Part shown: positions 6,252-30,268 of the stretch, piece by piece | Numbering within the stretch: position 1 is the first letter of the stretch | Layout of the letters: the number at the start of each line of letters is the position of its first letter | Assembly: GCA_044870765.1 (NCBI GenBank) | Contig: JBIOZG010000055.1 | Coordinates: 1 to 34,073, forward strand | Reading direction: 5' to 3' | DNA from: Nitrososphaeraceae archaeon | GTDB lineage: Archaea > Thermoproteota > Nitrososphaeria > Nitrososphaerales > Nitrososphaeraceae | DNA length: 34,073 bases | Notes under the pieces: generated by a model | The model's database searches: none | Told to the model about the DNA's origin: nothing | What the model saw: only the letters and a program-made list of their open reading frames with translations | Program-made: the position numbers and the translations under genes

Positions 6252-6842
6252 TTAGACTTCTTGCAAGTACCATCCTTGTGGCAGTAAAAGATTCCTGAAA
6301 GGTTCTTCGCCAACATGTGTTGCATAACGCCATATTTTTTGTCCATCCAGAGCGTTGAATCTGCAGCTGATTCTGTTCAGCGCTCTTAATTCGTTATCAA
6401 GTAAATTTTTACTTGCCTGATTTGAGTATTGACACGAAAATTTGCAATTTGAGTCAAGTTCCACAGTCGTTCTACACTCTTTTATTACAGGATAAGCGCG
6501 ACAAGCAAAAGGTCTTGCCTCATATATATGGCAATTAAAACCTCCATTTGGAGCGCGATTATTACTTTTTATGTCTAGGAATGGGCAATAGTCACCGTCG
6601 ATATTACCCATTAGCTGATATGCGATGACTTGGCGAGGGCCATTTGATTTTTTATTACTGCCGATTCCCAGTCTTGGAAATATGGTTATGCTGATTTGGG
6701 AGAGTTTAGCTAGACCTTCGATTTGCTTTTTTTCCTCCGGTAAAAGAAGAACTCCTATTTTTCCGTAATCTACTGAAGGATAGTATTGGCGGTATATACA
6801 GCAGTCAGAACAGTCCTGGACGCAATGAAATTCTCTAAGCAT
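6252..6842 (-). CDS. YkgJ-family cysteine-cluster (putative Fe-S/Zn) protein
   Basis: FHCVQDCSDCC, CPFLD, CHIYEARPFACRAYP motifs. Confidence 0.88.
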   Translation of the reverse strand: MLREFHCVQDCSDCCIYRQYYPSVDYGKIGVLLLPEEKKQIEGLAKLSQISITIFPRLGIGSNKKSNGPRQVIAYQLMGNIDGDYCPFLDIKSNNRAPNGGFNCHIYEARPFACRAYPVIKECRTTVELDSNCKFSCQYSNQASKNLLDNELRALNRISCRFNALDGQKIWRYATHVGEEPFRNLLLPQGWYLQEV

Positions 6843-7374
6843 TTTGCCACTCAGTGTTATTTATTAATGAATGTTCAAGACTATTCTCTTCAAGTTCATT
6901 TAATTTTAGAAATTTCACATCATAAATAGTCTTCATTCTTTTAAAGATATTAAGTTCGTAGGTAGCTGTAGCTTTGTTACTAGAATCATCTACACGATTT
7001 TCCAGAACATTGTTCTTGTCTGCAATTTTTTTTTCGAGGGATTTGTAAAGCGCAAATCGCAAAATCGTCTTTTCTTCAAAGTTCTTTTTGAACCTTAAAT
7101 AATTTTGAGTAAGAGCACTTTTCTTGAAAAAACCAATATTTTCTTTTGAAAGGAGATTCTTGCCTCTTTGATATAGGATGAACCAATAATCTTCCTTTTC
7201 TTCTATGAATCTTAAAATTATCTGGTCATCTGGCCACCAATGGATATACTCATTCCATGTTTTTAGTGCAATTTTTCGGTCGGTGTATAATATTAAAATA
7301 TTCATGGTTATGTCAGTATATCTGTAGCCTATACCTGCAAAGTGAGAAATCCAATTTTTCTCCATAATATCCAA
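6835..7374 (-). CDS. Hypothetical protein
   Basis: 179-aa ORF overlapping the YkgJ gene by 8 bp (likely operon). Confidence 0.65.
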   Translation of the reverse strand: MDIMEKNWISHFAGIGYRYTDITMNILILYTDRKIALKTWNEYIHWWPDDQIILRFIEEKEDYWFILYQRGKNLLSKENIGFFKKSALTQNYLRFKKNFEEKTILRFALYKSLEKKIADKNNVLENRVDDSSNKATATYELNIFKRMKTIYDVKFLKLNELEENSLEHSLINNTEWQNA

Positions 7375-7498
7375 TTTAATGAAACCTTAAAGTAAACTTA
7401 TCTAACAATCTATTTCATTCGACCTGGGTTAACTCATTACTCTATATTTGAGATGACAAAATGCCTCATATGATTACTAAGCAGGAATTTGAATAGAT

Positions 7499-7553
7499 TT
7501 GCAACTTGCCTCAGAGGGATAACAATAAAACTCATCATTGGCAAGTGTCGCAA
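7499..7553 (-). ncRNA. Single-guide box C/D sRNA, predicted to target 23S rRNA PTC
   Basis: Minus strand UUGCGAC-ACUUGCC-A-AUGAUGA-guuuuauuguuaucccu-CUGA-GGCAAGU-UGCAA: perfect box C (7532-7538) and box D (7511-7514), 7-bp terminal stem plus extension, 3-nt K-turn bulge; guide complementary to AGGGAUAACA. Confidence 0.8.
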
Positions 7554-7572
7554 TAGAAATAATCAACAAATA

Positions 7573-7580
7573 ATTTAAAG
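7573..7580 (-). promoter_or_regulatory. TATA box for the C/D sRNA
   Basis: CTTTAAAT on minus strand about 20-27 nt upstream of the predicted sRNA 5' end. Confidence 0.5.
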
Positions 7581-7609
7581 TTTGAGCTATTGAATTTTCG
7601 CCGTGATTG

Positions 7610-7786
7610 TCAAGTTTTTTCTACAGCTTCAATATGACATTCATGGCCTCTGTGAGCCTCGCTAAGATGTAAAGCCTCTTCATCTGTGATTGGGAATTTT
7701 TCGTAACTCAAGTTTTTCTCTCCTTCTTTTTCTAAAAGAATTTGTTTGCATTCATCACATATTAATTGGAGGAATATCTTGCCCAT
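7610..7786 (-). CDS. Small putative zinc-binding protein (58 aa), absent from ORF track
   Basis: MGKIFLQLICDECKQILLEKEGEKNLSYEKFPITDEEALHLSEAHRGHECHIEAVEKT; CxxC...HxxH. Confidence 0.75.
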   Translation of the reverse strand: MGKIFLQLICDECKQILLEKEGEKNLSYEKFPITDEEALHLSEAHRGHECHIEAVEKT

Positions 7787-7846
7787 GCCTAAAGTATTGT
7801 AACTAGGTTATTTAGACCATTGCCAGAAAGATGCCGTTACACTGCT

Positions 7847-8488
7847 TTATTCTATTGATCTGACGGCTGGTTTATTCTTGTACCTTAAGAACAAAAAGTA
7901 AGTAAGTAAAATAAAAACAATAGCAGTTGTCACATAGGCAATGTCGATAAGGACGCCTTTATCATTAATAATTGTGCAGGGGAACTCTCCATTAGAACAG
8001 CCAGCAGCAAAAAAAATCAAATTCCATATTGAATGGGATATGATGGCAAACCATCCTTTCCCGCTTATCCATGTTCTTAGACTTGCAAAAATGGATGGTG
8101 TTACAAATAACCAAGTTAAATAAGCAAGACTATTGACCTGCACGCTTGGCGTATTTAGAATATGCAATGATGCCCAAACGATACCTCCTGCAAGAGCTAC
8201 AATATTGTTTCCTGTTAGGTAAAAGGGAATTCCAAAAAACAGCGTCTCTTCAAAAGGACCTGCAGATATAACCGAAATGACTGATAGAGGTATAGTGGGC
8301 TCTGTGTATTGATTAACAACAAGATCAACTATTACCGAGCCTATTATCATGATTGCAAAACCGATTAAATGGTAAAACAGTATCATAATTGTCATGTAAT
8401 AGACGGAATTTCGCCTATACTTTGAAATCCATGAAAGGGGATTAAAATCAGTTTTCAAGTCAGCGAATAAAGGTCTTGATGATGACAA
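7847..8488 (-). CDS. CPBP-family (Abi/CAAX-like) intramembrane glutamic protease
   Basis: Multi-TM; GPFEETLFFG, WASLH and HSIWN motifs. Confidence 0.8.
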   Translation of the reverse strand: MSSSRPLFADLKTDFNPLSWISKYRRNSVYYMTIMILFYHLIGFAIMIIGSVIVDLVVNQYTEPTIPLSVISVISAGPFEETLFFGIPFYLTGNNIVALAGGIVWASLHILNTPSVQVNSLAYLTWLFVTPSIFASLRTWISGKGWFAIISHSIWNLIFFAAGCSNGEFPCTIINDKGVLIDIAYVTTAIVFILLTYFLFLRYKNKPAVRSIE

Positions 8489-8567
8489 TTACTGTGATAT
8501 TGATGTGGAAAGTCGAAGATATTTACACGTTTTGCCTTGTTACATACAAACTTAGACTTTCCTTAGA

Positions 8568-10649
8568 TTAAGAAATATTTTTTTCAAGCTCCTTTATTGT
8601 GGTTATGGGGAGCGAACAGGTAAAGTCCTTGCAAACAAATGCAAATTCCTTACTACTATTATTGTTTTTATCTGATAGTTTTCCCTTAAAATAGGGATAT
8701 TTTTCTAGCTCCGACAATGCGGATTGATTTACGATTGCTGTAATTGCATTAGGAAGGAACCTTCTGTTTATGTGGTTTCCAAGTTCCGAATGTCCATCCT
8801 GCTTTATTACAGAAACCTCAATTGGTGTTTTAATACGTAAATACATTGCTGAGAGTAATTGACCAAATCCAAATGGATTTCCTGCAGCTGCCTTTGACAT
8901 TCTTTGAATCATTTGGTCTGCTTTTGAAAGGAAATCTTGATTTTGTGTGTAGTAATATAACTTTATCAAATTGGAAACGGCAACAGAATTTCCACTGGGA
9001 ATTGCAAGATCGTAGTGATTCTTTGTCCTAACAATTAACTTTTCATTGTCGTCAGGAGTAAAGAAAAAGTCATTTGTGTCACTATCCCAAAAATAATCAA
9101 TAATTGAATTAGTATACTCGATGGCTCTCTGAAGATAGTAAGATTTCGAATCAACACTAAATAAATTGATCAAAGCCTCCGTATAGAAGGCATAATCATC
9201 AAGATATCCAGAAATCTTGGAAACATTATTGAAAACCCTATCAAGCCTGTTTCCATTTTTACTTAGATTATTTTCGATAAAACCGACGGCTTTTTGTGCA
9301 ATTTCAAGATAACTCGAATTACCAGTTACTTTATAGCCACTGACAAAGCCCGAAATCATCAAACCGTTCCAAGAAGTCAGTATCTTTTTATCAGTACCAG
9401 GTTTGATTCTTTCGAGTCTGATTTGATAAAGCTCCTCCAATGAGGATTCAGTCTTTTCTTCTATCCATTCTTGAGTTTTGGAGTATCTTTCAGATAACCT
9501 GGGTATGGAAGTATACTTGTGTAAAATGTTCTTACCATCAAAATTACCCCCTTGGGTAACACCAAATCGATCAGCAAATATCTCAAAGATCTCCGGATTA
9601 AGGATTTCTTTGAGTTCCTTGTATGACCATACATAGTATTTTCCCTCCTCGCCTTCAGAGTCTGCATCTTGTGAAGAGTAAAAAGCGCCCTCATGTGACA
9701 TCATCTCTCTTTGAACGAATCTGAGAATTTTTTGAAGCACGTTTAAATAGTTACGATTTAAGGTGATCGAGTATATCTCAGAATAAAGTAATGAAAGAAG
9801 TGCATTATCGTATAGCATTTTCTCGAAATGTGGAACTAACCATCTTTGATCTGTGGAATAACGTGCAAAACCGCCTCCTACATGATCATGTATACCTCCT
9901 GAATCCATCTTGTCAGCAGTAAAATGAACGAAGTCTCTATATTTAGTGATGCCAGAATAATCATACGCCCTTAATAAGAATAGCAAATTTGAAGCGTTTG
10001 GAAATTTTGGCGCGCTACCAAACCCTCCGTACATATTATCAGCCAGTTGCAACAGAGTAACAGCTGCCTCGTTTATAATTGTATTTTCTAATTTAGAATC
10101 ATTATCAGAAACTATGTCTGTAGATGAATTCTCTAAAGCAGTAACAAACTCTTGACTAGAAGAAATAACTTCATTGCGTCTATTTTTGTATCCATCCGAC
10201 AATCTAGATAATATTGTTCCAAATCCAGGTAAACCATGTCTACTTTCGCTAGGAAAATACGTTCCAATGTAGAAAGGTTTTTGATCGGGGGTTAGAAATG
10301 CCGATAATGGCCAGCCCCCAGTTCCAGTATACACTTGACAGGCCCTCTGGTAAATATCATCAATATCGGGTCTTTCCTCTCTGTCGACTTTGATATTAAT
10401 GTAATTTTCATTCATTATTTTAGCTATATCGTTATCTTCAAACGATTCATGCGCCATTACATGACACCAATGACAAGAACTGTATCCAATACTCAAGAAA
10501 ATGGGTTTGTCTTCTTTCTTTGATCTTTCTAGCGCTTCCTGATTCCAACCATACCAATCAACGGGATTATATGCATGCTGAAGTAGATAAGGACTGGTTT
10601 CATTGATTAAACGATTAGGTTTAAGGCCAGAGCCATGGTTTTCATCCAC
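8568..10649 (-). CDS. Thioredoxin-domain protein, YyaL/SSP411 (DUF255) family
   Basis: [75 protein letters not shown]-terminal CKDFTCSLP. Confidence 0.95.
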
Positions 10650-10780
10650 ATACGTTTAATCGAGAATATGATATTTAGACCCTTTCATTAATGGAGTAAG
10701 ATTGTCACAGTAATTATTTGCAGTGGTATTTTTGGACAGAGTAAGCATATAATTATAATTTGGTAGTAATTATCAAGTAA

Positions 10781-11347
10781 TTGATACGAATTCATAACAA
10801 TAAGAAGGGACTAAGAGTTCTTGCAATTGCAGAGAGTTTTCGAAAACATGATATGAAATCCATCCTGGCAGGTGTCGTTATGCGACGAGATTTTGTGGTG
10901 GATGGTTTTGTATACACAGATACGACGATAGGCGGAAATGATGGCACCGACAAAATTATCTCTATTATTAAAAGTCTCAGAAGAAATGATATCAATTATG
11001 TTCTTCTAGGAGGATTAATAATTAGTCTGTACAATATTATAAATGGTAAACAAATTCATGAAAAAATAGGGTTGCCCGTAATAGCAATATCATATAAAAA
11101 ATCATTCGGTTTGACAGGCTCGATACACGGAATTGATGAGAAGCAAAAAATTCTGGATTATTTGAGACTTGAAAATCCTAAACCATTAATGTTGTGGACT
11201 GGAAAAACAGTATTTGTTCGTCAATGGGGAGTAAGTTTTGCTGATGCTTCGAATTTGTTAAACTCTCTTGTTCTCCAGGGTGCCAAGCCAGAGCCACTCC
11301 GACTTGCAACTTTAGCCGCTAGAGCATGTAGAAATTATGGTAAATGA
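10781..11347 (+). CDS. DUF99 family (endonuclease V-like) protein
   Basis: RVLAIAESF, LAGVVMRRD, GGNDGT, YNII, LPVIAI, PEPLRLA. Confidence 0.85.
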   Translation: MIRIHNNKKGLRVLAIAESFRKHDMKSILAGVVMRRDFVVDGFVYTDTTIGGNDGTDKIISIIKSLRRNDINYVLLGGLIISLYNIINGKQIHEKIGLPVIAISYKKSFGLTGSIHGIDEKQKILDYLRLENPKPLMLWTGKTVFVRQWGVSFADASNLLNSLVLQGAKPEPLRLATLAARACRNYGK

Positions 11348-11424
11348 ATTATCAAAGAATTTGAAACACCAGACTGTCTGGGAATTTGGATACCCAATAC
11401 AATGTATCGTCGTGCATTAGTTCA

Positions 11425-11631
11425 TTAATAGTTAGATTCTTTCGACTTTGTTGATTTTGGTGTGTAGCGTACATACGCATCATAAAAAATTTCGTTTCCA
11501 TGACCTGTTACGGTATGCAAAAAAGAGATTTCAAGTACAACCTTTGTTTCATTTTCCAAGAAATTATTAATATCTTGTTCAAGACCATGCGGTTCATACG
11601 ACCTGAAAAATTTTATCCTTTCCTTGGGCAT
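11425..11631 (-). CDS. Small hypothetical protein
   Basis: 68 aa, RIKFF...LEQDINNFL pattern. Confidence 0.55.
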   Translation of the reverse strand: MPKERIKFFRSYEPHGLEQDINNFLENETKVVLEISFLHTVTGHGNEIFYDAYVRYTPKSTKSKESNY

Positions 11632-11757
11632 TATTTGTTTAATGGGAATAAAAAGGCATTATATCAATATTATCAAATTAGCTTTATTTCTTTAGTGCAA
11701 TCTATTTTGCTGGTCACCTGATCAAATATTTGCTATGATCTTTATTACTTAGACAGG

Positions 11758-12165
11758 CTAAGCTCTATTCAACAATTCCATCTCTTTTTCCTTGACGATT
11801 GGTTTTATCTTATTCATGATTACGTGGTGAAAGTTCTTTGTATCTACATCAAGGGTAAAAATAATTACAAAGCATAAATGATTTCTAGAATCAGTTATGG
11901 GTATGGTTATCCTAAGCAATTTCTCATAGCTTGAGCATGTATAATCGATTTTTCCTAATATAGACTGCCATCTAATTCTTGTATATTGCCGGGTAACTGC
12001 AGCCAGAGCATATTGAGCGGTTTGCTCATCATTTAACAACGGTTTAATTCCTTTTCTTTCTGAGACACCCAATATTGTTCCATGATGGTCTACAATGGCT
12101 GCAAATCTAATGTTTTTATCAGTTTTAGTAATTGTCTCGCAGAATGATTTAAAGAAATTTGACAC
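11758..12165 (-). CDS. Roadblock/profilin-like small protein of the type expanded in Nitrososphaerota
   Basis: DKNIRFAAIVDHHG...RKGIKPLL...LGKIDY...YEKLLRITIP. Confidence 0.7.
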   Translation of the reverse strand: MSNFFKSFCETITKTDKNIRFAAIVDHHGTILGVSERKGIKPLLNDEQTAQYALAAVTRQYTRIRWQSILGKIDYTCSSYEKLLRITIPITDSRNHLCFVIIFTLDVDTKNFHHVIMNKIKPIVKEKEMELLNRA

Positions 12166-12291
12166 AGGTAAAAACTAAATTCTCGGTGTAATAAATTTTA
12201 AGGAATGTGAGAAAATACGGTTAAAGATAACTGCCTTAGATTAGACTCAAAAAAATAAATAACATATTTTTAACACTTATAGTTAAACACG

Positions 12292-12843
12292 ATGCCTGAA
12301 TTGGCTCATAGAAGAAAGCTTGCAATCGATTTGGATTCTGTTCTCGCAGATACCATGATTATCTGGGCTGAGGAATTCAACAAGCGTAAGAACTCTAGCA
12401 TAACTAAAGAGAATATCGTATCCTGGGACATCTCAAAAACTCTAGACATATCTATAACTGAAGTTTCGGACATTTTCACATATATCTGGGACAAGAAGTG
12501 GGAAGACATACCATCAACAGAACCGTCGATTGGTAATATAGTCTCCAAACTTCACAATAAAGGTTTCAGAATCTCTATTCTTACAAAAAGGTATCGATCT
12601 TCTGTAAGCAATGTTATAAAATGGCTAGATTTACACAAGATTCATTGCGACGATCTCTTGTTTGTTTATGATGATGCTCCAAAGACAGACTATCCTTTTG
12701 ATATCTTAGTTGATGACGCGCCTATCAATTTTAGTGAACTAGATCAGCCTAGGATAGGAATTCTCTTTAACCAACCTTGGAACAAGAACTTTACATGGCC
12801 GGTCAGAATTAATGCTCTGAGCGAAGTGATTAATATAATATAA
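12292..12843 (+). CDS. HAD-superfamily 5'(3')-deoxyribonucleotidase (NT5C type)
   Basis: AIDLDSVLAD motif I, ILTKR motif II, ILVDD motif IV, LFNQPWN. Confidence 0.85.
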   Translation: MPELAHRRKLAIDLDSVLADTMIIWAEEFNKRKNSSITKENIVSWDISKTLDISITEVSDIFTYIWDKKWEDIPSTEPSIGNIVSKLHNKGFRISILTKRYRSSVSNVIKWLDLHKIHCDDLLFVYDDAPKTDYPFDILVDDAPINFSELDQPRIGILFNQPWNKNFTWPVRINALSEVINII

Positions 12844-13069
12844 TATTATAAAATATAATCATAGCACCAAATATCGCTAAGTATTGTAAACTTAAAATTT
12901 TCAATTACTGCTTTTGGGTCACGGTTCATTTATCTCACATTTAGTCACTTTTAACCGGTTCAATAATTAATATACACACACGTTATTTCTGAAAATAATA
13001 TCGATAATTGGCCTGTATTTGTAAATCTGAACTGCTGAAGAAAGAAACGTTAAGTATTCTTTTAGTTAT

Positions 13070-13645
13070 TTGCATGTTGAAATGGCTGAAAACGCTATTA
13101 TTAGTAGCAATAAACTATATTCAGGCAAAATATCGCTCAGATTGGACAAGTATCATATGGGTAATAAGATCCTCGAAAAAGAAATAGTAGAACATCAAGA
13201 TTCAGTTGGGATAATTGCTTTAGATAAGAAAGACAATATAATATTAGTAGAACAATTTAGAATTGCAACCAGGAATAATCTACTTGAAATCCCAGCTGGC
13301 AAAATTGAAAATGGTGAAACTCCTGATACTGCTGCGTTACGTGAGATGAATGAAGAGATAGGTTTCTCTGGAAAATTAACACCACTATTCCAATGCTATT
13401 TAGCTCCTGGATATGATACAGAGAAAATGTACTTTTTTCTCGCATCAGAACTCAAGTTATCAAAAAAGCGACTGCCACAGGATGAAGATGAAGAAATTAG
13501 AATTAGAAGAATGAAATTGAGCTCTGCTCTGGAAAAATGCCTTTCCGGACAAATAATCGATTGCAAAACTATAGCTGCAATTATGATGATCTTGAAAATC
13601 AAAAAAAGTGGAGTGCAACATCGGCACCAAAAGGTCATTGAATGA
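13070..13645 (+). CDS. Nudix hydrolase, ADP-ribose pyrophosphatase-like
   Basis: Nudix box GKIENGETPDTAALREMNEEIG; EIVEH, EQFR, LEIPAG, APG, DEDE, DCKT. Confidence 0.9.
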   Translation: MHVEMAENAIISSNKLYSGKISLRLDKYHMGNKILEKEIVEHQDSVGIIALDKKDNIILVEQFRIATRNNLLEIPAGKIENGETPDTAALREMNEEIGFSGKLTPLFQCYLAPGYDTEKMYFFLASELKLSKKRLPQDEDEEIRIRRMKLSSALEKCLSGQIIDCKTIAAIMMILKIKKSGVQHRHQKVIE

Positions 13646-13678
13646 AAAGTCTATAAAACAAGGACGATAATCCTCATT

Positions 13679-13978
13679 ATGTCTCAAATAAAGTACAAGA
13701 AATTATCGGGAGATGAATTAGATGAAATCGTCAGGAATATGAAAGGATGGGAATTAAAGGACCAGAAATTGCAAAAATCATTTAAATTTACAAACTTCGT
13801 CGAAGCGTTTGGATTCATGACTAGAATTGCCCTTGAAGCGGAAAGAATGAACCATCATCCGGAATGGTCAAATGTCTACAACAATGTGACAATTAAACTG
13901 AGTACTCACGATGCTGGTGGAATTACAGATCACGATATCAAGTTAGCAAAAATTATTGACGATACTAATCCAGAATAG
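13679..13978 (+). CDS. Pterin-4-alpha-carbinolamine dehydratase
   Basis: [40 protein letters not shown]. Confidence 0.95.
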
Positions 13979-14008
13979 AATTACTCAATCAATATTTAAA
14001 ACAGTATA

Positions 14009-14500
14009 TCAACGGCTGTCAGAGTCCTTTACATTTACTAGTAACACTTCATTCATTAACCAGTCGCAAAACTTCTTCAAATTTTCATCAATGGTACACC
14101 AGAGATGTAGGGAACCAGGCAATATCTCTATCCTGCCTCTATCCATTAATATCTTAAGTCCTTCTTTACCTTCATACATGTACGCATCCTGTGGGATAAC
14201 ATTCCCCAAAAATTCAATTGCCTTTTGCTTGATGATGTCTCTAGGTATTGGGAACCTTTTTCGGAACTTGTCCACAACCAGTCCCAAATTTTCTGTGCCA
14301 TAATTATCTACATCATAAATTTTATTTCTATCTGGAAAATGTAAACGTAAGATCACATTATGTCTTGAACCTGTAAATTCTGCCAGTTGATTCGTCAATT
14401 TATATGCAATATTAGGGCTTTTTTTTAGCGATTCTCGAATTTCTTTATCGTGGTATTTAATATTAAATAACAATTCTGAATGCAAGTTAGTAAAACTCAA
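14009..14500 (-). CDS. Hypothetical protein
   Basis: 163-aa ORF with LRLHFP, DAYMYEGKEG, GRIEILPGSLHLW motifs. Confidence 0.7.
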   Translation of the reverse strand: MSFTNLHSELLFNIKYHDKEIRESLKKSPNIAYKLTNQLAEFTGSRHNVILRLHFPDRNKIYDVDNYGTENLGLVVDKFRKRFPIPRDIIKQKAIEFLGNVIPQDAYMYEGKEGLKILMDRGRIEILPGSLHLWCTIDENLKKFCDWLMNEVLLVNVKDSDSR

Positions 14501-14663
14501 TGAGGATTAAAGAAGTCGAACTTTATATTATCGTACTGGACAACATTCAACTTAAACAAGTAGTTCCCTTTGCGTTAGATTGATTAATTAAGTGTAGTCT
14601 AATGGCATTGGTAAAGTCTAGAAGACACTTATATCTTGATTAATTATATTATGAGAACAACCC

Positions 14664-15284
14664 ATGTTTGCAACAGATTCCAGTTCCGAACGAGCCACAA
14701 GCATTGAAGATTATCAAAATACCTGTATGGAGTTTATAATTGACATTAGTCGGGACTATAAAGATTGGGTCGATAGGTATCAATTAAGTAACGATGAAAT
14801 CACCAAAAGAAAAAATTCCATTGATAGTGTTGTCAAAACCACCAATGAGTGGATACAAAACTACTGTAATACTATAAAGAAGGTAGACATTGTCATGAAT
14901 GATGGTATAAATAAGATGGCAGAAAACACTGCAGGCTATCCATTTGAATTTGAAGTTTATGTTAATGCTGAAAAAAGATATGTAAAGCATCCTAATGGTA
15001 CTATACCACTGAGGGTAAATGCTATTCCACAAGAAGGACGAACGATTAGGGTAGGCAATTATAGTAAAAGTGAGTTATTTCTTATCGCATCAAGCTCTCC
15101 GATATCTTATACAGTAAGTAAAGAAAGTATGAATACGGTTGATATCCTGGACGACTACATAACTCTTGATGCATCCAAATGTGAAAGGGGCAATATTATT
15201 TCCATCACAATCATTGTTGAAGAAATAAAAGACGATTATGTCTCTGAAAGCAGAGGATATTCTACTGTTATCATGATCAGTTGA
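14664..15284 (+). CDS. Hypothetical protein
   Basis: 206-aa ORF, helical N-half and beta-rich C-half; no recognised motif. Confidence 0.55.
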   Translation: MFATDSSSERATSIEDYQNTCMEFIIDISRDYKDWVDRYQLSNDEITKRKNSIDSVVKTTNEWIQNYCNTIKKVDIVMNDGINKMAENTAGYPFEFEVYVNAEKRYVKHPNGTIPLRVNAIPQEGRTIRVGNYSKSELFLIASSSPISYTVSKESMNTVDILDDYITLDASKCERGNIISITIIVEEIKDDYVSESRGYSTVIMIS

Positions 15285-15474
15285 GTTACCAATCAAAGAG
15301 AAAATCAATCATATTTAGGACACAAGGTCAATAATTTGAACTAACATTTATTACAGAAGAGTCTAATTCCCACTCAATTTCTGGATTTTTAATTTTGACT
15401 TTTATTAAGAATAATGCGCTTGGGACAAAGAAACAGTTAAAATAAGCAATATTTTTTCCATCATTAGATGAGCT

Positions 15475-15549
15475 GCGACGGTCGTCCAGTTTGGTCTAGG
15501 ACATCAGATTGCCAATCTGGTAACCCGGGTTCAAATCCCGGCCGTCGCA
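15475..15549 (+). tRNA. tRNA-Gly (GCC), intronless, CCA not encoded
   Basis: Acceptor GCGACGG/CCGTCGC, D arm GTCC/GGAC, anticodon arm TCAGA-TTGCCAA-TCTGG, T arm CCGGG-TTCAAAT-CCCGG, discriminator A. Confidence 0.97.
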
Positions 15550-15563
15550 TTTGTTTCTATTTT

Positions 15564-16013
15564 TCAATGTAACGATTTTCCTCCTTTTATAATACCAATC
15601 ATTTGATTGTAGGCATTCATTGCATTATCTTTTTTTGGAAGTTGAATAACAAGTAGGTTTCCTTCTGAAACAGTTCCTGTCGTAGAAGGCGCAATTGCAA
15701 TCAATCCAGTATTTGCCAGAGCTTCAAAAAATTGGAGCATTTCATTAGCATATAAAAGGTAATTTTCGTCAAAATCATAATCAAGGTAAGTCATCAATAT
15801 ATCTACAAAAACGTGTTTTGTATCATGAAATAGATCTAATAATACATCAACAGCTAGTTTTTTCCCAGCAACTTTTTTAATTATTTCATCATATCTTTTA
15901 GAATCGATATGGATGCAAGGAATTGGATTTCCGTCATAATCAATTAATGATGCATCGTATCTGTGCAAATTATTTTTGAAATCTTCCAATGTGTTGAAAA
16001 ATCTCTTGGGCAT
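15564..16013 (-). CDS. Hypothetical protein
   Basis: 149-aa ORF convergent on tRNA-Gly. Confidence 0.7.
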   Translation of the reverse strand: MPKRFFNTLEDFKNNLHRYDASLIDYDGNPIPCIHIDSKRYDEIIKKVAGKKLAVDVLLDLFHDTKHVFVDILMTYLDYDFDENYLLYANEMLQFFEALANTGLIAIAPSTTGTVSEGNLLVIQLPKKDNAMNAYNQMIGIIKGGKSLH

Positions 16014-16051
16014 ATTGTAGAATATAGTTAATAATTTACCAAGTTATTTAT

Positions 16052-16080
16052 TCATTAGTTCATTGCCTCATTAGTTCATT
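16052..16080. repeat. 13-bp direct repeat TCATTAGTTCATT x2, 3-bp spacer
   Basis: Copies at 16052-16064 and 16068-16080. Confidence 0.7.
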
Positions 16081-16147
16081 ATTTGACTATTTAAATGGCT
16101 GAGATCCTCACGTCAATGCAAAACTCAACCAAATTGAATGGAAAAAG

Positions 16148-16210
16148 ATGGTCAGTTACCCTAGTGCTTTCATCATCTAAGTAATCAGCAAAGAGTAATC
16201 TTCATCCCAT
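16148..16210 (-). ncRNA. Bipartite box C/D sRNA
   Basis: Minus strand AUGG-G-AUGAAGA(C)-uuacucuuug-CUGA(D')-uuacuuag-AUGAUGA(C')-aagcacuaggguaa-CUGA(D)-CCAU then CUUUUU; all four boxes in canonical order and spacing, terminal stem, upstream TATA-like CTTAATAG at 16233-16240. Confidence 0.88.
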
Positions 16211-16324
16211 TGTCAATACTTGAAAAAGTGAACTATTAAGATTATCTTTGATGTAAAATTCTTGATAATGGGTAATCAGTTGTATTACACCATAATTTAA
16301 ATAAAAAAAATATCATAGTTTTTC

Positions 16325-16924
16325 ATGTCGTCAGAAGAATTAGTTTTAGAAAAGATACTCTCCACAGGTTCTAATGGAATAAAAAAGTCAGATCTAAAAA
16401 AGGAATTTACCTCATATGACCTAGACCAGACTCTAGAGAATCTCGTCAATAATGGAAAAGTATGTGTTGATAAAAAAGGAGCGGCATATTATTGCTGGAC
16501 TGCAGAAGTTTATGTCAAGCATCTGAATAGCGTTGATCCAAAGTTTAGAATTTTACTTGAACGAATAAAAATCATTGAAAGGAAACTAGACACTCAATCA
16601 AATAGTGTCAAAGATGCATTAAACGGCCTGATAGAAGTTTTAAAGAGTGAAAATTCCGAATTACCTAAAGCACTTGTCAATCTTGACAATTTCAAAATCG
16701 AATTTGATACCATCTTGTCCAGATCAACTAGTTCAATAGGTTGGATTGAGCTAGGAAACGTAAGGAGTGAGCTAGGCCAAAAATTTGATTTAGACAAGAA
16801 TGAATTCTACGAACTTGTAGAACAGCTAATCAACTCCTATCAGAATGAATATGAACTATCAACTGGAGGAAGCGAAGGCCTAATTCTGAGAGGCTTACTC
16901 CATGGCTTTGTAAGAGGGATATGA
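16325..16924 (+). CDS. Putative DNA-binding protein (wHTH - coiled coil - wHTH-like)
   Basis: N-terminal IKKSDLKKEF...LDQTLENLVNNGKV wing pattern, central heptads, C-terminal WIELGNVRSELG...EFYELVEQL helix pattern. Confidence 0.65.
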   Translation: MSSEELVLEKILSTGSNGIKKSDLKKEFTSYDLDQTLENLVNNGKVCVDKKGAAYYCWTAEVYVKHLNSVDPKFRILLERIKIIERKLDTQSNSVKDALNGLIEVLKSENSELPKALVNLDNFKIEFDTILSRSTSSIGWIELGNVRSELGQKFDLDKNEFYELVEQLINSYQNEYELSTGGSEGLILRGLLHGFVRGI

Positions 16925-29851: not shown

Positions 29852-30268
29852 GTGTCTGTCGAGAATAGGATGGTTAGTATTGTAGACGACGATCCAGATA
29901 TCATTATGCTTTTTCATGAGGCTTTAAAAAGCATCTCAGGGATAACAATATTTACATTTACAGATCCTATTTTGGCGCTAGAGCATTTTCAAGTAAATGA
30001 GTACGCCTATGTGCTGGTATTATCAGATTTTAAGATGCCTGGATTGAATGGTATGGAATTTCTAAAAAAGATAAAGGAACTGAACAGCTTTGTAAGAACG
30101 ATATTGATGACGGCATTTCAAATAGAAGATAAGGTTTTTCGCGAGTATACTAAAAAGAAAATTATAAACGCATTTCTTCAAAAACCAATAGGTATACACG
30201 ATCTTCTTAAAGAAGTGAATACGCAATTACATTCTTATGAAATGCAAAAGAAATTTCCCTCAGACTAA
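29852..30268 (+). CDS. Stand-alone response regulator receiver protein
   Basis: IVDDD, LSDFKMPGLNGMEF, LMTA, FLQKP. Confidence 0.93.
   Translation: MSVENRMVSIVDDDPDIIMLFHEALKSISGITIFTFTDPILALEHFQVNEYAYVLVLSDFKMPGLNGMEFLKKIKELNSFVRTILMTAFQIEDKVFREYTKKKIINAFLQKPIGIHDLLKEVNTQLHSYEMQKKFPSD

Follow-up and report, generated by a model that had tools for sequence, protein, structure and literature searches.

Two box C/D-like RNA loci of a soil ammonia-oxidizing archaeon with predicted guides for overlapping 23S rRNA sites beside the peptidyl transferase center

The window analyzed here is the whole 34,073-nt stretch of contig JBIOZG010000055.1 from a Nitrososphaeraceae archaeon, a mesophilic soil ammonia oxidizer whose assembly comprises 59 contigs and is 96.65% complete. 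Two intergenic loci carry the boxes of C/D small RNAs (sRNAs): locus A, between open reading frames (ORFs) at 6835-7374 and 7610-7786, and locus B, between ORFs at 15564-16013 and 16325-16924. Their target sites in 23S ribosomal RNA (rRNA) overlap by 2 nt, with the predicted methylation sites 7 nt apart. We consider it probable that the window holds two separately transcribed guides for the archaeal 2′-O-methyltransferase formed by fibrillarin, Nop5, and L7Ae, B being a standard guide and A one with a single kink-turn (k-turn). An earlier note on this DNA, made from the sequence alone, had proposed two box C/D sRNAs. Boxes C and D are indeed present on the minus strand at both loci and B has the canonical layout, whereas A lacks the internal C′ and D′ boxes and has a single 17-nt spacer.

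Anatomy of the loci and their rRNA targets

In locus B, boxes C and D′ are separated by 10 nt, D′ and C′ by an 8-nt loop, and C′ and D by 14 nt, with GGG before box C and CC after box D. Its parts are as follows.

16150..16208, minus strand: locus B, complete canonical box C/D sRNA of ~59 nt (sequence, four-box scan, Rfam, conservation)
16206-16208 with 16150-16151, minus strand: terminal stem, GGG/CC (sequence)
16199..16205, minus strand: box C, AUGAAGA, one deviation from RUGAUGA; AUGAUGA in other genera
16189..16198, minus strand: D′ spacer, 10 nt, varying between genera and without a conserved target
16185..16188, minus strand: box D′, CUGA
16170..16176, minus strand: box C′, AUGAUGA
16156..16169, minus strand: D spacer, 14 nt; guide positions 1 to 9 are 16156-16164, paired to 23S UUACCCUAG
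16152..16155, minus strand: box D, CUGA

This was the sole match of a whole-genome four-box scan allowing at most one box mismatch (one real match versus none in the reversed control). The best C/D family match of locus B in Rfam is snoPyro_CD, which scores 17.9 bits against 16149-16209 (minus strand) and falls short of the 45-bit gathering score.

Locus A is smaller and simpler, a hairpin whose loop is one 17-nt stretch between boxes C and D (15 to 18 nt among copies).

7504..7546, minus strand: locus A, minimal single-guide C/D-like RNA of 43 nt (copies 41 to 43 nt; sequence, Rfam, stem covariation)
7540-7546 with 7504-7510, minus strand: terminal stem, 7 bp (covariation)
7532..7538, minus strand: box C, AUGAUGA (GAUGA columns invariant)
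7526..7531, minus strand: loop linker, 6 nt, U-rich, variable in sequence and length
7515..7525, minus strand: guide to 23S AGGGAUAACAG, 10 Watson-Crick pairs plus one G-U, E. coli 2444-2454
7511..7514, minus strand: box D, CUGA
7569..7583, minus strand: putative archaeal promoter, a TATA-like TTTAAA core with upstream AAAC, ending ~28 nt before the stem

No C′- or D′-like sequence occurs in the loop in any of the 28 aligned copies. A 3-nt bulge, formed by base 7539 and the first two bases of box C, adjoins the stem, and stem, bulge, and GA/AG positions agree with what we take to be the k-turn consensus. The TTTAAA/AAAC motif and its spacing are kept in copies from the genus, the intervening sequence up to the stem being variable, and the motif looks like an archaeal promoter that would start transcription at the stem. 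Six stemmed single-guide candidates were found in the genome and none in the reversed control; A alone combines a stem, a TATA-like motif, and an rRNA match.

The Rfam search suggested in the earlier note gave a divided answer. Permissive matches at the two loci fall nearly all in C/D small nucleolar RNA (snoRNA) families with the correct strand and ends, and the sub-threshold matches at A share exact ends and strand, but no gathering score is reached. The partner proteins are encoded in the same genome: fibrillarin, Nop5, and L7Ae Pfam families all score above their cut-offs, the fibrillarin and Nop5 genes being adjacent on contig C48 and the L7Ae gene lying on C5.

To identify targets, the host rRNA had to be pieced together. 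The operon is split over contig ends, with 16S at 810-2279 of contig C18 on the minus strand and the middle of 23S unassembled; the Rfam large-subunit (LSU) model gave no match in the host's genome, and no complete 23S is present in the assembly. The last ~460 nt of the host 23S, located by motif, form the end of contig C36, and we presume that the start of C18, next to 16S, carries the missing 5′ part. Because the middle is unassembled, the 23S of G001, a genome of the same genus, served as a stand-in, and whole-rRNA scans were performed with all three spacers against it and the host's 16S. Over the target segment, the 23S of G001 and of a second genome of the genus, G008, is identical to that of the host. 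E. coli numbering was verified against an annotated E. coli rRNA operon.

The D guide of B has its best rRNA match at E. coli 2437-2445, with 9 Watson-Crick pairs to host 23S UUACCCUAG, and the nucleotide facing guide position 5 is 2441, a C in the host and a U in E. coli. The best rRNA matches of the D′ spacer reach only 8 Watson-Crick pairs plus G-U. For A, the best match is E. coli 2444-2454, starting from the base that adjoins box D, which places A2448 opposite guide position 5. Both best matches thus fall on one contiguous stretch adjoining A2451, as the earlier note had proposed, and its two plus-strand strings, AGTTACCCTAG at 16154-16164 and AGGGATAACA at 7515-7524, are present exactly. 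They are contiguous in the host as well, since the 23S 3′ part on C36 begins with a segment that holds both, overlapping by AG. The calculated sites, 2441 and 2448, agree with the annotated E. coli operon. The leading AG of the locus B string does not belong to the guide; it is the complement of box D, and the real pairing is the 9 bp given above. Among the 22 transfer RNAs (tRNAs) detected by aragorn, no better match was found for either guide.

A distinction between chance and selection requires more than this complementarity. Counting Watson-Crick pairs only, ~0.008 anchored 10-mers and 0.034 9-mers would be expected by chance over ~4,440 rRNA positions in two registers at uniform composition. 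With G-U pairs allowed, random genomic 14-mers often score alike, so complementarity alone is weak evidence, and it is conservation and covariation that carry the case.

Conservation and covariation

Within the genus, the region of B was matched in 29 of 40 genomes and that of A in 24 of 40, the shortest A matches spanning the core only. Thirty B loci were read; 28 are the sRNA, conserved in 28 of the 40 genomes, and 2 the upstream flank only. Three of the genomes used, each contributing single rows, are unpublished (G029, with L008 and L039; G030, with L060; and G299, with L084), and the conclusions are the same without them: the tallies become 23/39 for A and 26/38 for B in the genus and 14/111 for B in family f13 (below), and the A alignment (A1) falls to 27 rows. 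The two loci are syntenic, lying on one contig 8.6 to 11 kb apart in at least four other members of the genus. The synteny and covariation that the earlier note had named as checks were found; its argument that two unlinked loci support each other does not really stand, since A and B would be separate transcription units but are not independent loci.

Locus B is the more widespread. Its C′-guide-D pattern was found in 105 of the 401 genomes of the order (reversed-pattern control, 0), distributed as 89/111 in the host's own family (f1), 15/112 in a second family (f13), and 0/177 in 18 other families; one further match in f1, on contig C201 of G316, carries a guide unrelated to that of B. This strict pattern overlooked genus g18 because its C′ box is AUGAAGA and its guide position 1 is G, and a looser search located B in all five g18 genomes checked. 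Guide positions 2 to 9 are invariant in every f1 copy seen. The loop and the D′ spacer vary across f1, as does the guide at position 1, where A, U, and G occur, and at position 11, where all four bases are seen; an invariant guide core beside a drifting D′ spacer identifies the D guide as the selected part of B. The terminal stem is 2 to 3 bp of the GGG/CC type in all 47 f1 copies tabulated, and the corresponding flanks in f13 are GCAG and CUGC. Spacers are asymmetric in both families, with 9 to 10 nt (D′) and 14 nt (D) in f1 versus 8 to 10 and 15 to 16 nt in f13.

Guide and target change together between the two families. The f1 23S has U at E. coli 2443 in 45 of 45 matches, the host included, facing A at guide position 7. 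Every f13 copy has G at this guide position, with pairing that reaches position 10, and the f13 23S has C opposite it in the five genomes checked. Both partners were seen in 37 f1 and 5 f13 genomes, and none was discordant. Judged from these aligned sequences, position 7 of the guide and its rRNA partner have undergone a compensatory change.

The D′ spacer of B shows features of its own. In the host's genus, its start (within 16189-16198) mimics the rRNA target, and in the minimum free energy (MFE) fold the 7 D-guide bases nearest box D (16156-16162) can pair with it; in some genera its first base covaries with guide position 1 (U-A, A-U, C-G). We rejected this internal helix as a general feature, as positions 1 to 4 are paired in only 10 to 14 of 24 distinct variants; where present, it may extend a k-turn stem or allow the guide to mask itself. 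In f13 copies (L072-L086), the D′ spacer (e.g., UUGGGUAUU) resembles the D guide and does not complement it, a similarity that points to duplication of the guide within the RNA; we found no target for this spacer. The ~120 nt upstream of B (16204-16324, minus strand) are 87 to 90% identical across most of the genus, more than other spacers, and could represent a promoter, the end of a 50-codon ORF at 16297-16449, or another element.

Locus A is confined to fewer lineages. Its pattern was found in 15 of 131 genomes of the family, namely the host, 10 of 16 genomes of genus g1, and 4 of 11 of genus g18, with one match in the reversed control, and in none of 103 genomes of the 16 other genera of the family. 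The preservation of boxes and guides among relatives, which the earlier note had made a test of its proposal, thus extends through the family for B and to two genera only for A, where some species have decayed copies. The alignment of 28 rows, of which 24 come from the genus and 4 from g18, shows little or no variation in box C, box D, and 9 to 10 guide bases; the string of guide plus box D is exact in 24 copies, and the 6 to 7 U-rich loop bases next to box C vary. The terminal stem, computed on all 28 rows with the unpublished genomes included, is paired in 89.9% of cells, against 75.5% for shuffled partners (0 of 500 shuffles reach 89.9%) and 18 to 47% for slid partners. Changes on both sides were observed at six of the seven pairs, and the g18 stem is wholly different in sequence. 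As for guide-target coevolution, the target of A is invariant.

A wide scan with the A pattern covered one genome per species for 185,579 species and returned 59 matches, 22 of which have the stem-loop architecture of A. Twenty-one of the 22 come from entries titled Nitrososphaeraceae, Nitrososphaera, Nitrosopolaris, Thaumarchaeota, Nitrososphaeria, or Thermoproteota, and an entry titled "uncultured bacterium" (L176) has the identical layout. The other 37 carry bacterial or other titles and are mostly stemless; ~39 matches would be expected by chance, by estimate. One match in a non-thaumarchaeal archaeon, Candidatus Pelearchaeum sp. (L181, 6054-6077), has a 5- to 6-bp flanking stem and a single 14-nt spacer, and from its sequence could be either a chance match or an independent single-guide C/D RNA directed at this rRNA site. 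A search for an alternative guide to the A site in two other genera (five complete genomes) gave seven pattern matches with no box C upstream, which we attribute to chance, as we do a second string in the window, GGATAACAAT plus TCAG at 29929-29947 (window position 29938), which lies within the ORF at 29852-30268 and has no box C.

Weighing the proposed guides against alternatives

From the anatomy, the conservation, the covariation of the A stem and the B guide, and the presence of the enzyme genes, we infer transcription, assembly into ribonucleoproteins (RNPs), methylation sites, and an order of action. On B, L7Ae would bind both k-turn motifs and a Nop5 dimer would bridge them, so as to let fibrillarin methylate the ribose paired to guide position 5; the D guide would pair with the 3′ strand of 23S helix 74 (2437-2445) and direct a methyl group to C2441. 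The guide of A, 10 to 11 nt next to box D, would pair with 2444-2454, reaching into the peptidyl transferase loop, with A2448 opposite position 5. Its 6- to 7-nt U-rich linker would return to box C by spanning the 10- to 11-bp guide-target duplex, a geometry that appears feasible. The duplexes would lie side by side on one strand with 2 nt in common, so that the RNPs would need to take turns on nascent 23S, ahead of the folding of helix 74 and the central loop. Such turn-taking is common for clustered sites and not in itself unusual; the ordered action or folding-chaperone role suggested in the earlier note is plausible at most.

Several observations weigh against this reading. Of 2,000 random genomic 14-mers, 5% equal the rRNA match of A and 20% that of B once G-U pairs are allowed, and the B-target duplex is only 8 to 9 bp. 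Neither locus reaches any Rfam gathering score. The B guide-rRNA covariation represents a single evolutionary event between two clades. Four RNA-library runs, used as assembled contigs only and compared with positions 7300-16400, show flat depth over genes and spacers in two cases and patchy depth in the other two. Locus A has decayed in 4 of the 24 genus copies, with altered guides, pairing broken in two, and box D lost in one, and B is intact in three of the four genomes concerned; this decay, together with the absence from 16 other genera, indicates that A is dispensable. According to a review, a 10- to 12-nt spacing is conserved and required for methylation (PMC3608112), whereas A has no C′/D′ and a 17-nt spacer and B has spacers of 10 and 14 nt. 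Synthetic single-site C/D complexes were reported to be active without being site specific, both motifs being needed for specificity (PMC1635284), and it is therefore uncertain that A targets exactly A2448.

Where the conserved core of A begins and ends, at 7504 and 7546-7547, the same RNA-library contigs break or have loose ends, most likely because the assembly graph branches among related strains. Contigs of related strains likewise break at the borders of a tRNA gene at 15475-15549.

The alternative that survives best accepts B as a genuine methylation guide and regards A as a noncatalytic antisense RNA, an L7Ae-bound k-turn hairpin that acts as a folding placeholder or chaperone on the peptidyl transferase strand. 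An RNA without C′/D′ and with a 17-nt loop could not position fibrillarin on this account, which agrees with the need for both motifs and for 10- to 12-nt spacing in efficient, specific methylation reported in PMC3608112 and PMC1635284, and elsewhere among archaeal sRNAs guide pairing has been proposed to act as a chaperone (PMC4644070). Yet loop conservation coincides precisely with the 10 to 11 nt abutting box D, the register of a methylation guide; synthetic single-site complexes did methylate (PMC1635284); and two A-type RNAs could share one Nop5 dimer. We judge this alternative unlikely. Locus A may either methylate, perhaps imprecisely, at or near A2448 or act by pairing only.

Less probable again is that A does not act in trans on rRNA at all and serves locally as a conserved k-turn hairpin, for example as an L7Ae regulatory site or as a signal for the 3′ end or processing of the upstream 58-codon ORF, or else is the remnant of an sRNA, with a coincidental 23S match. 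The frequency of equal matches among random 14-mers would allow the coincidence; A lies 64 nt downstream of this co-oriented small ORF, is restricted to two genera, and is decaying in some species; and archaeal mRNAs with L7Ae-bound k-turns are known (PMC5539422). A hairpin of this kind would not explain why the rRNA-complementary loop bases are conserved as the remaining loop drifts, nor why the match, out of ~4,400 possible positions, adjoins the independently supported target of B. In addition, A is preceded at promoter distance by a conserved TATA-like motif of its own, its flanks, the 3′ flank included, are not conserved across the genus, and g18 has the same loop in a different stem and different surroundings. 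The last alternative, that both loci are chance box-like motifs in AT-rich intergenic DNA, is very improbable: the boxes are short and no Rfam gathering score is reached, but the reversed controls gave 0 versus 1 (four-box scan) and 0 versus 6 (stemmed half-mers), the order-wide reversed patterns were empty, and the family-wide conservation and the covariation in the A stem and the B guide-target pair exclude it in our judgment.

Two guides for one strand thus remain the reading we prefer, and they compare differently with known systems. Like the archaeal C/D sRNAs of Pyrococcus (sR, snoPyro_CD RF00095), B has the full C/D′/C′/D layout, a terminal stem, an rRNA guide, the geometry of methylation opposite guide position 5, and genes for the partner proteins, and it is a new member of this kind. 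It differs in its low score (17.9 bits versus 45) and in its asymmetric spacers, set against the 10 to 12 nt given for other archaea in PMC3608112, and the host is a mesophile with hardly any other C/D RNA in strict scans. Locus A shares with archaeal C/D sRNAs the boxes C and D, the terminal stem, and an rRNA guide whose fifth position is paired. It lacks the C′/D′ boxes that B has, and neither locus keeps to 10- to 12-nt spacers.

The best Rfam match of A is plant snoR38 (RF00213), the counterpart of eukaryotic snR38, at 25 bits (E value 0.018 to 0.048), below the gathering score of 45. The two have in common a UGCC/GGCA stem, box C, and the guide core GUUAUCCCU; snoR38, in contrast, is ~91 nt long, has C′/D′ boxes, and carries the shared guide in the box C-proximal (D′) position, where A is 43 nt with its guide at box D. 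Yeast snR38 is reported to guide Gm2815 in 25S rRNA (PMC5027498). Homology and convergence on a universally conserved target would account equally for the likeness. Yeast Gm2815 would correspond to E. coli G2446, which lies 2 nt away from the predicted site of A along the same strand. The shared guide core may mean that this strand was already targeted before this archaeal lineage and eukaryotes diverged.

Synthetic half-mer or hemi box C/D RNPs resemble A in having one C/D k-turn and one guide. These are laboratory constructs made for structural and enzymological studies, whereas A is a natural, conserved gene with its guide closed into a loop. Half-mer C/D RNPs are reported to be inefficient or site-unspecific (Tran et al. 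2003, by its title; PMC1635284). From its sequence, A looks like a natural "half" C/D RNA, a new variant. Half-mer RNAs have been crystallized in monomeric RNPs (PMC6239191). It is a possibility that two copies of A share one Nop5 dimer. We hold it possible, if doubtful, that A represents a natural "hemi" box C/D guide RNA, the first of its sort: a 41- to 43-nt single-k-turn hairpin with a loop made up solely of the guide and the U-rich return linker, working in vivo without C′/D′.

Other C/D-like candidates, neighboring genes, and meaning

Whole-genome strict-box scans, which degenerate sRNAs would escape, returned only B, A, and one weak candidate. The latter, a possible third C/D-like RNA on contig C36 (12257-12313, minus strand), combines perfect C and D boxes and a GGGG/CCCC stem with internal boxes that are degenerate; it matches no rRNA or tRNA convincingly. 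Near position 11304 of contig C12 (plus strand), TGATGA, a 14-nt spacer, and CTGA occur downstream of a TTTAAA-like motif, with a 12-bp 23S match that includes 3 G-U pairs. As far as the scans find, this is a lineage with essentially two C/D RNAs, both of which would be devoted to one 18-nt strand leading into A2451. Genes flanking the two loci are Rce1-like, encode a CxxCxxCC protein, or lack a Pfam match, and no functional link was found. The only Rfam match in the window at the gathering threshold is the tRNA at 15475-15549 (plus strand, 64.9 bits), called tRNA-Gly with anticodon GCC by aragorn, 600 nt from locus B.

Thaumarchaeal C/D sRNAs are not described in any paper that our literature searches returned. 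Neither Thaumarchaeota nor Nitroso- is mentioned in the pan-archaeal papers PMC7994747 and PMC4644070, the latter of which covers seven other species. Am2448 and Cm2441 are absent from the literature searched, the supplementary guide-target tables of PMC4644070 and PMC6009581 lying outside its coverage. The C/D guide RNAs of ammonia-oxidizing archaea, which are among the most abundant soil archaea, are thus not covered in the literature we found, and for these organisms B provides a family-wide, covariation-backed prediction of ribose methylation beside the catalytic center. Locus A is the more important of the two, since in vitro work held both the C/D and the C′/D′ platforms necessary for efficient, site-specific methylation. 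Species with a decayed A and an intact B represent natural knockouts. If the reading of A is true, a conserved one-platform RNA would either overturn the two-platform rule in vivo or reveal a guide that serves for pairing, not for catalysis.

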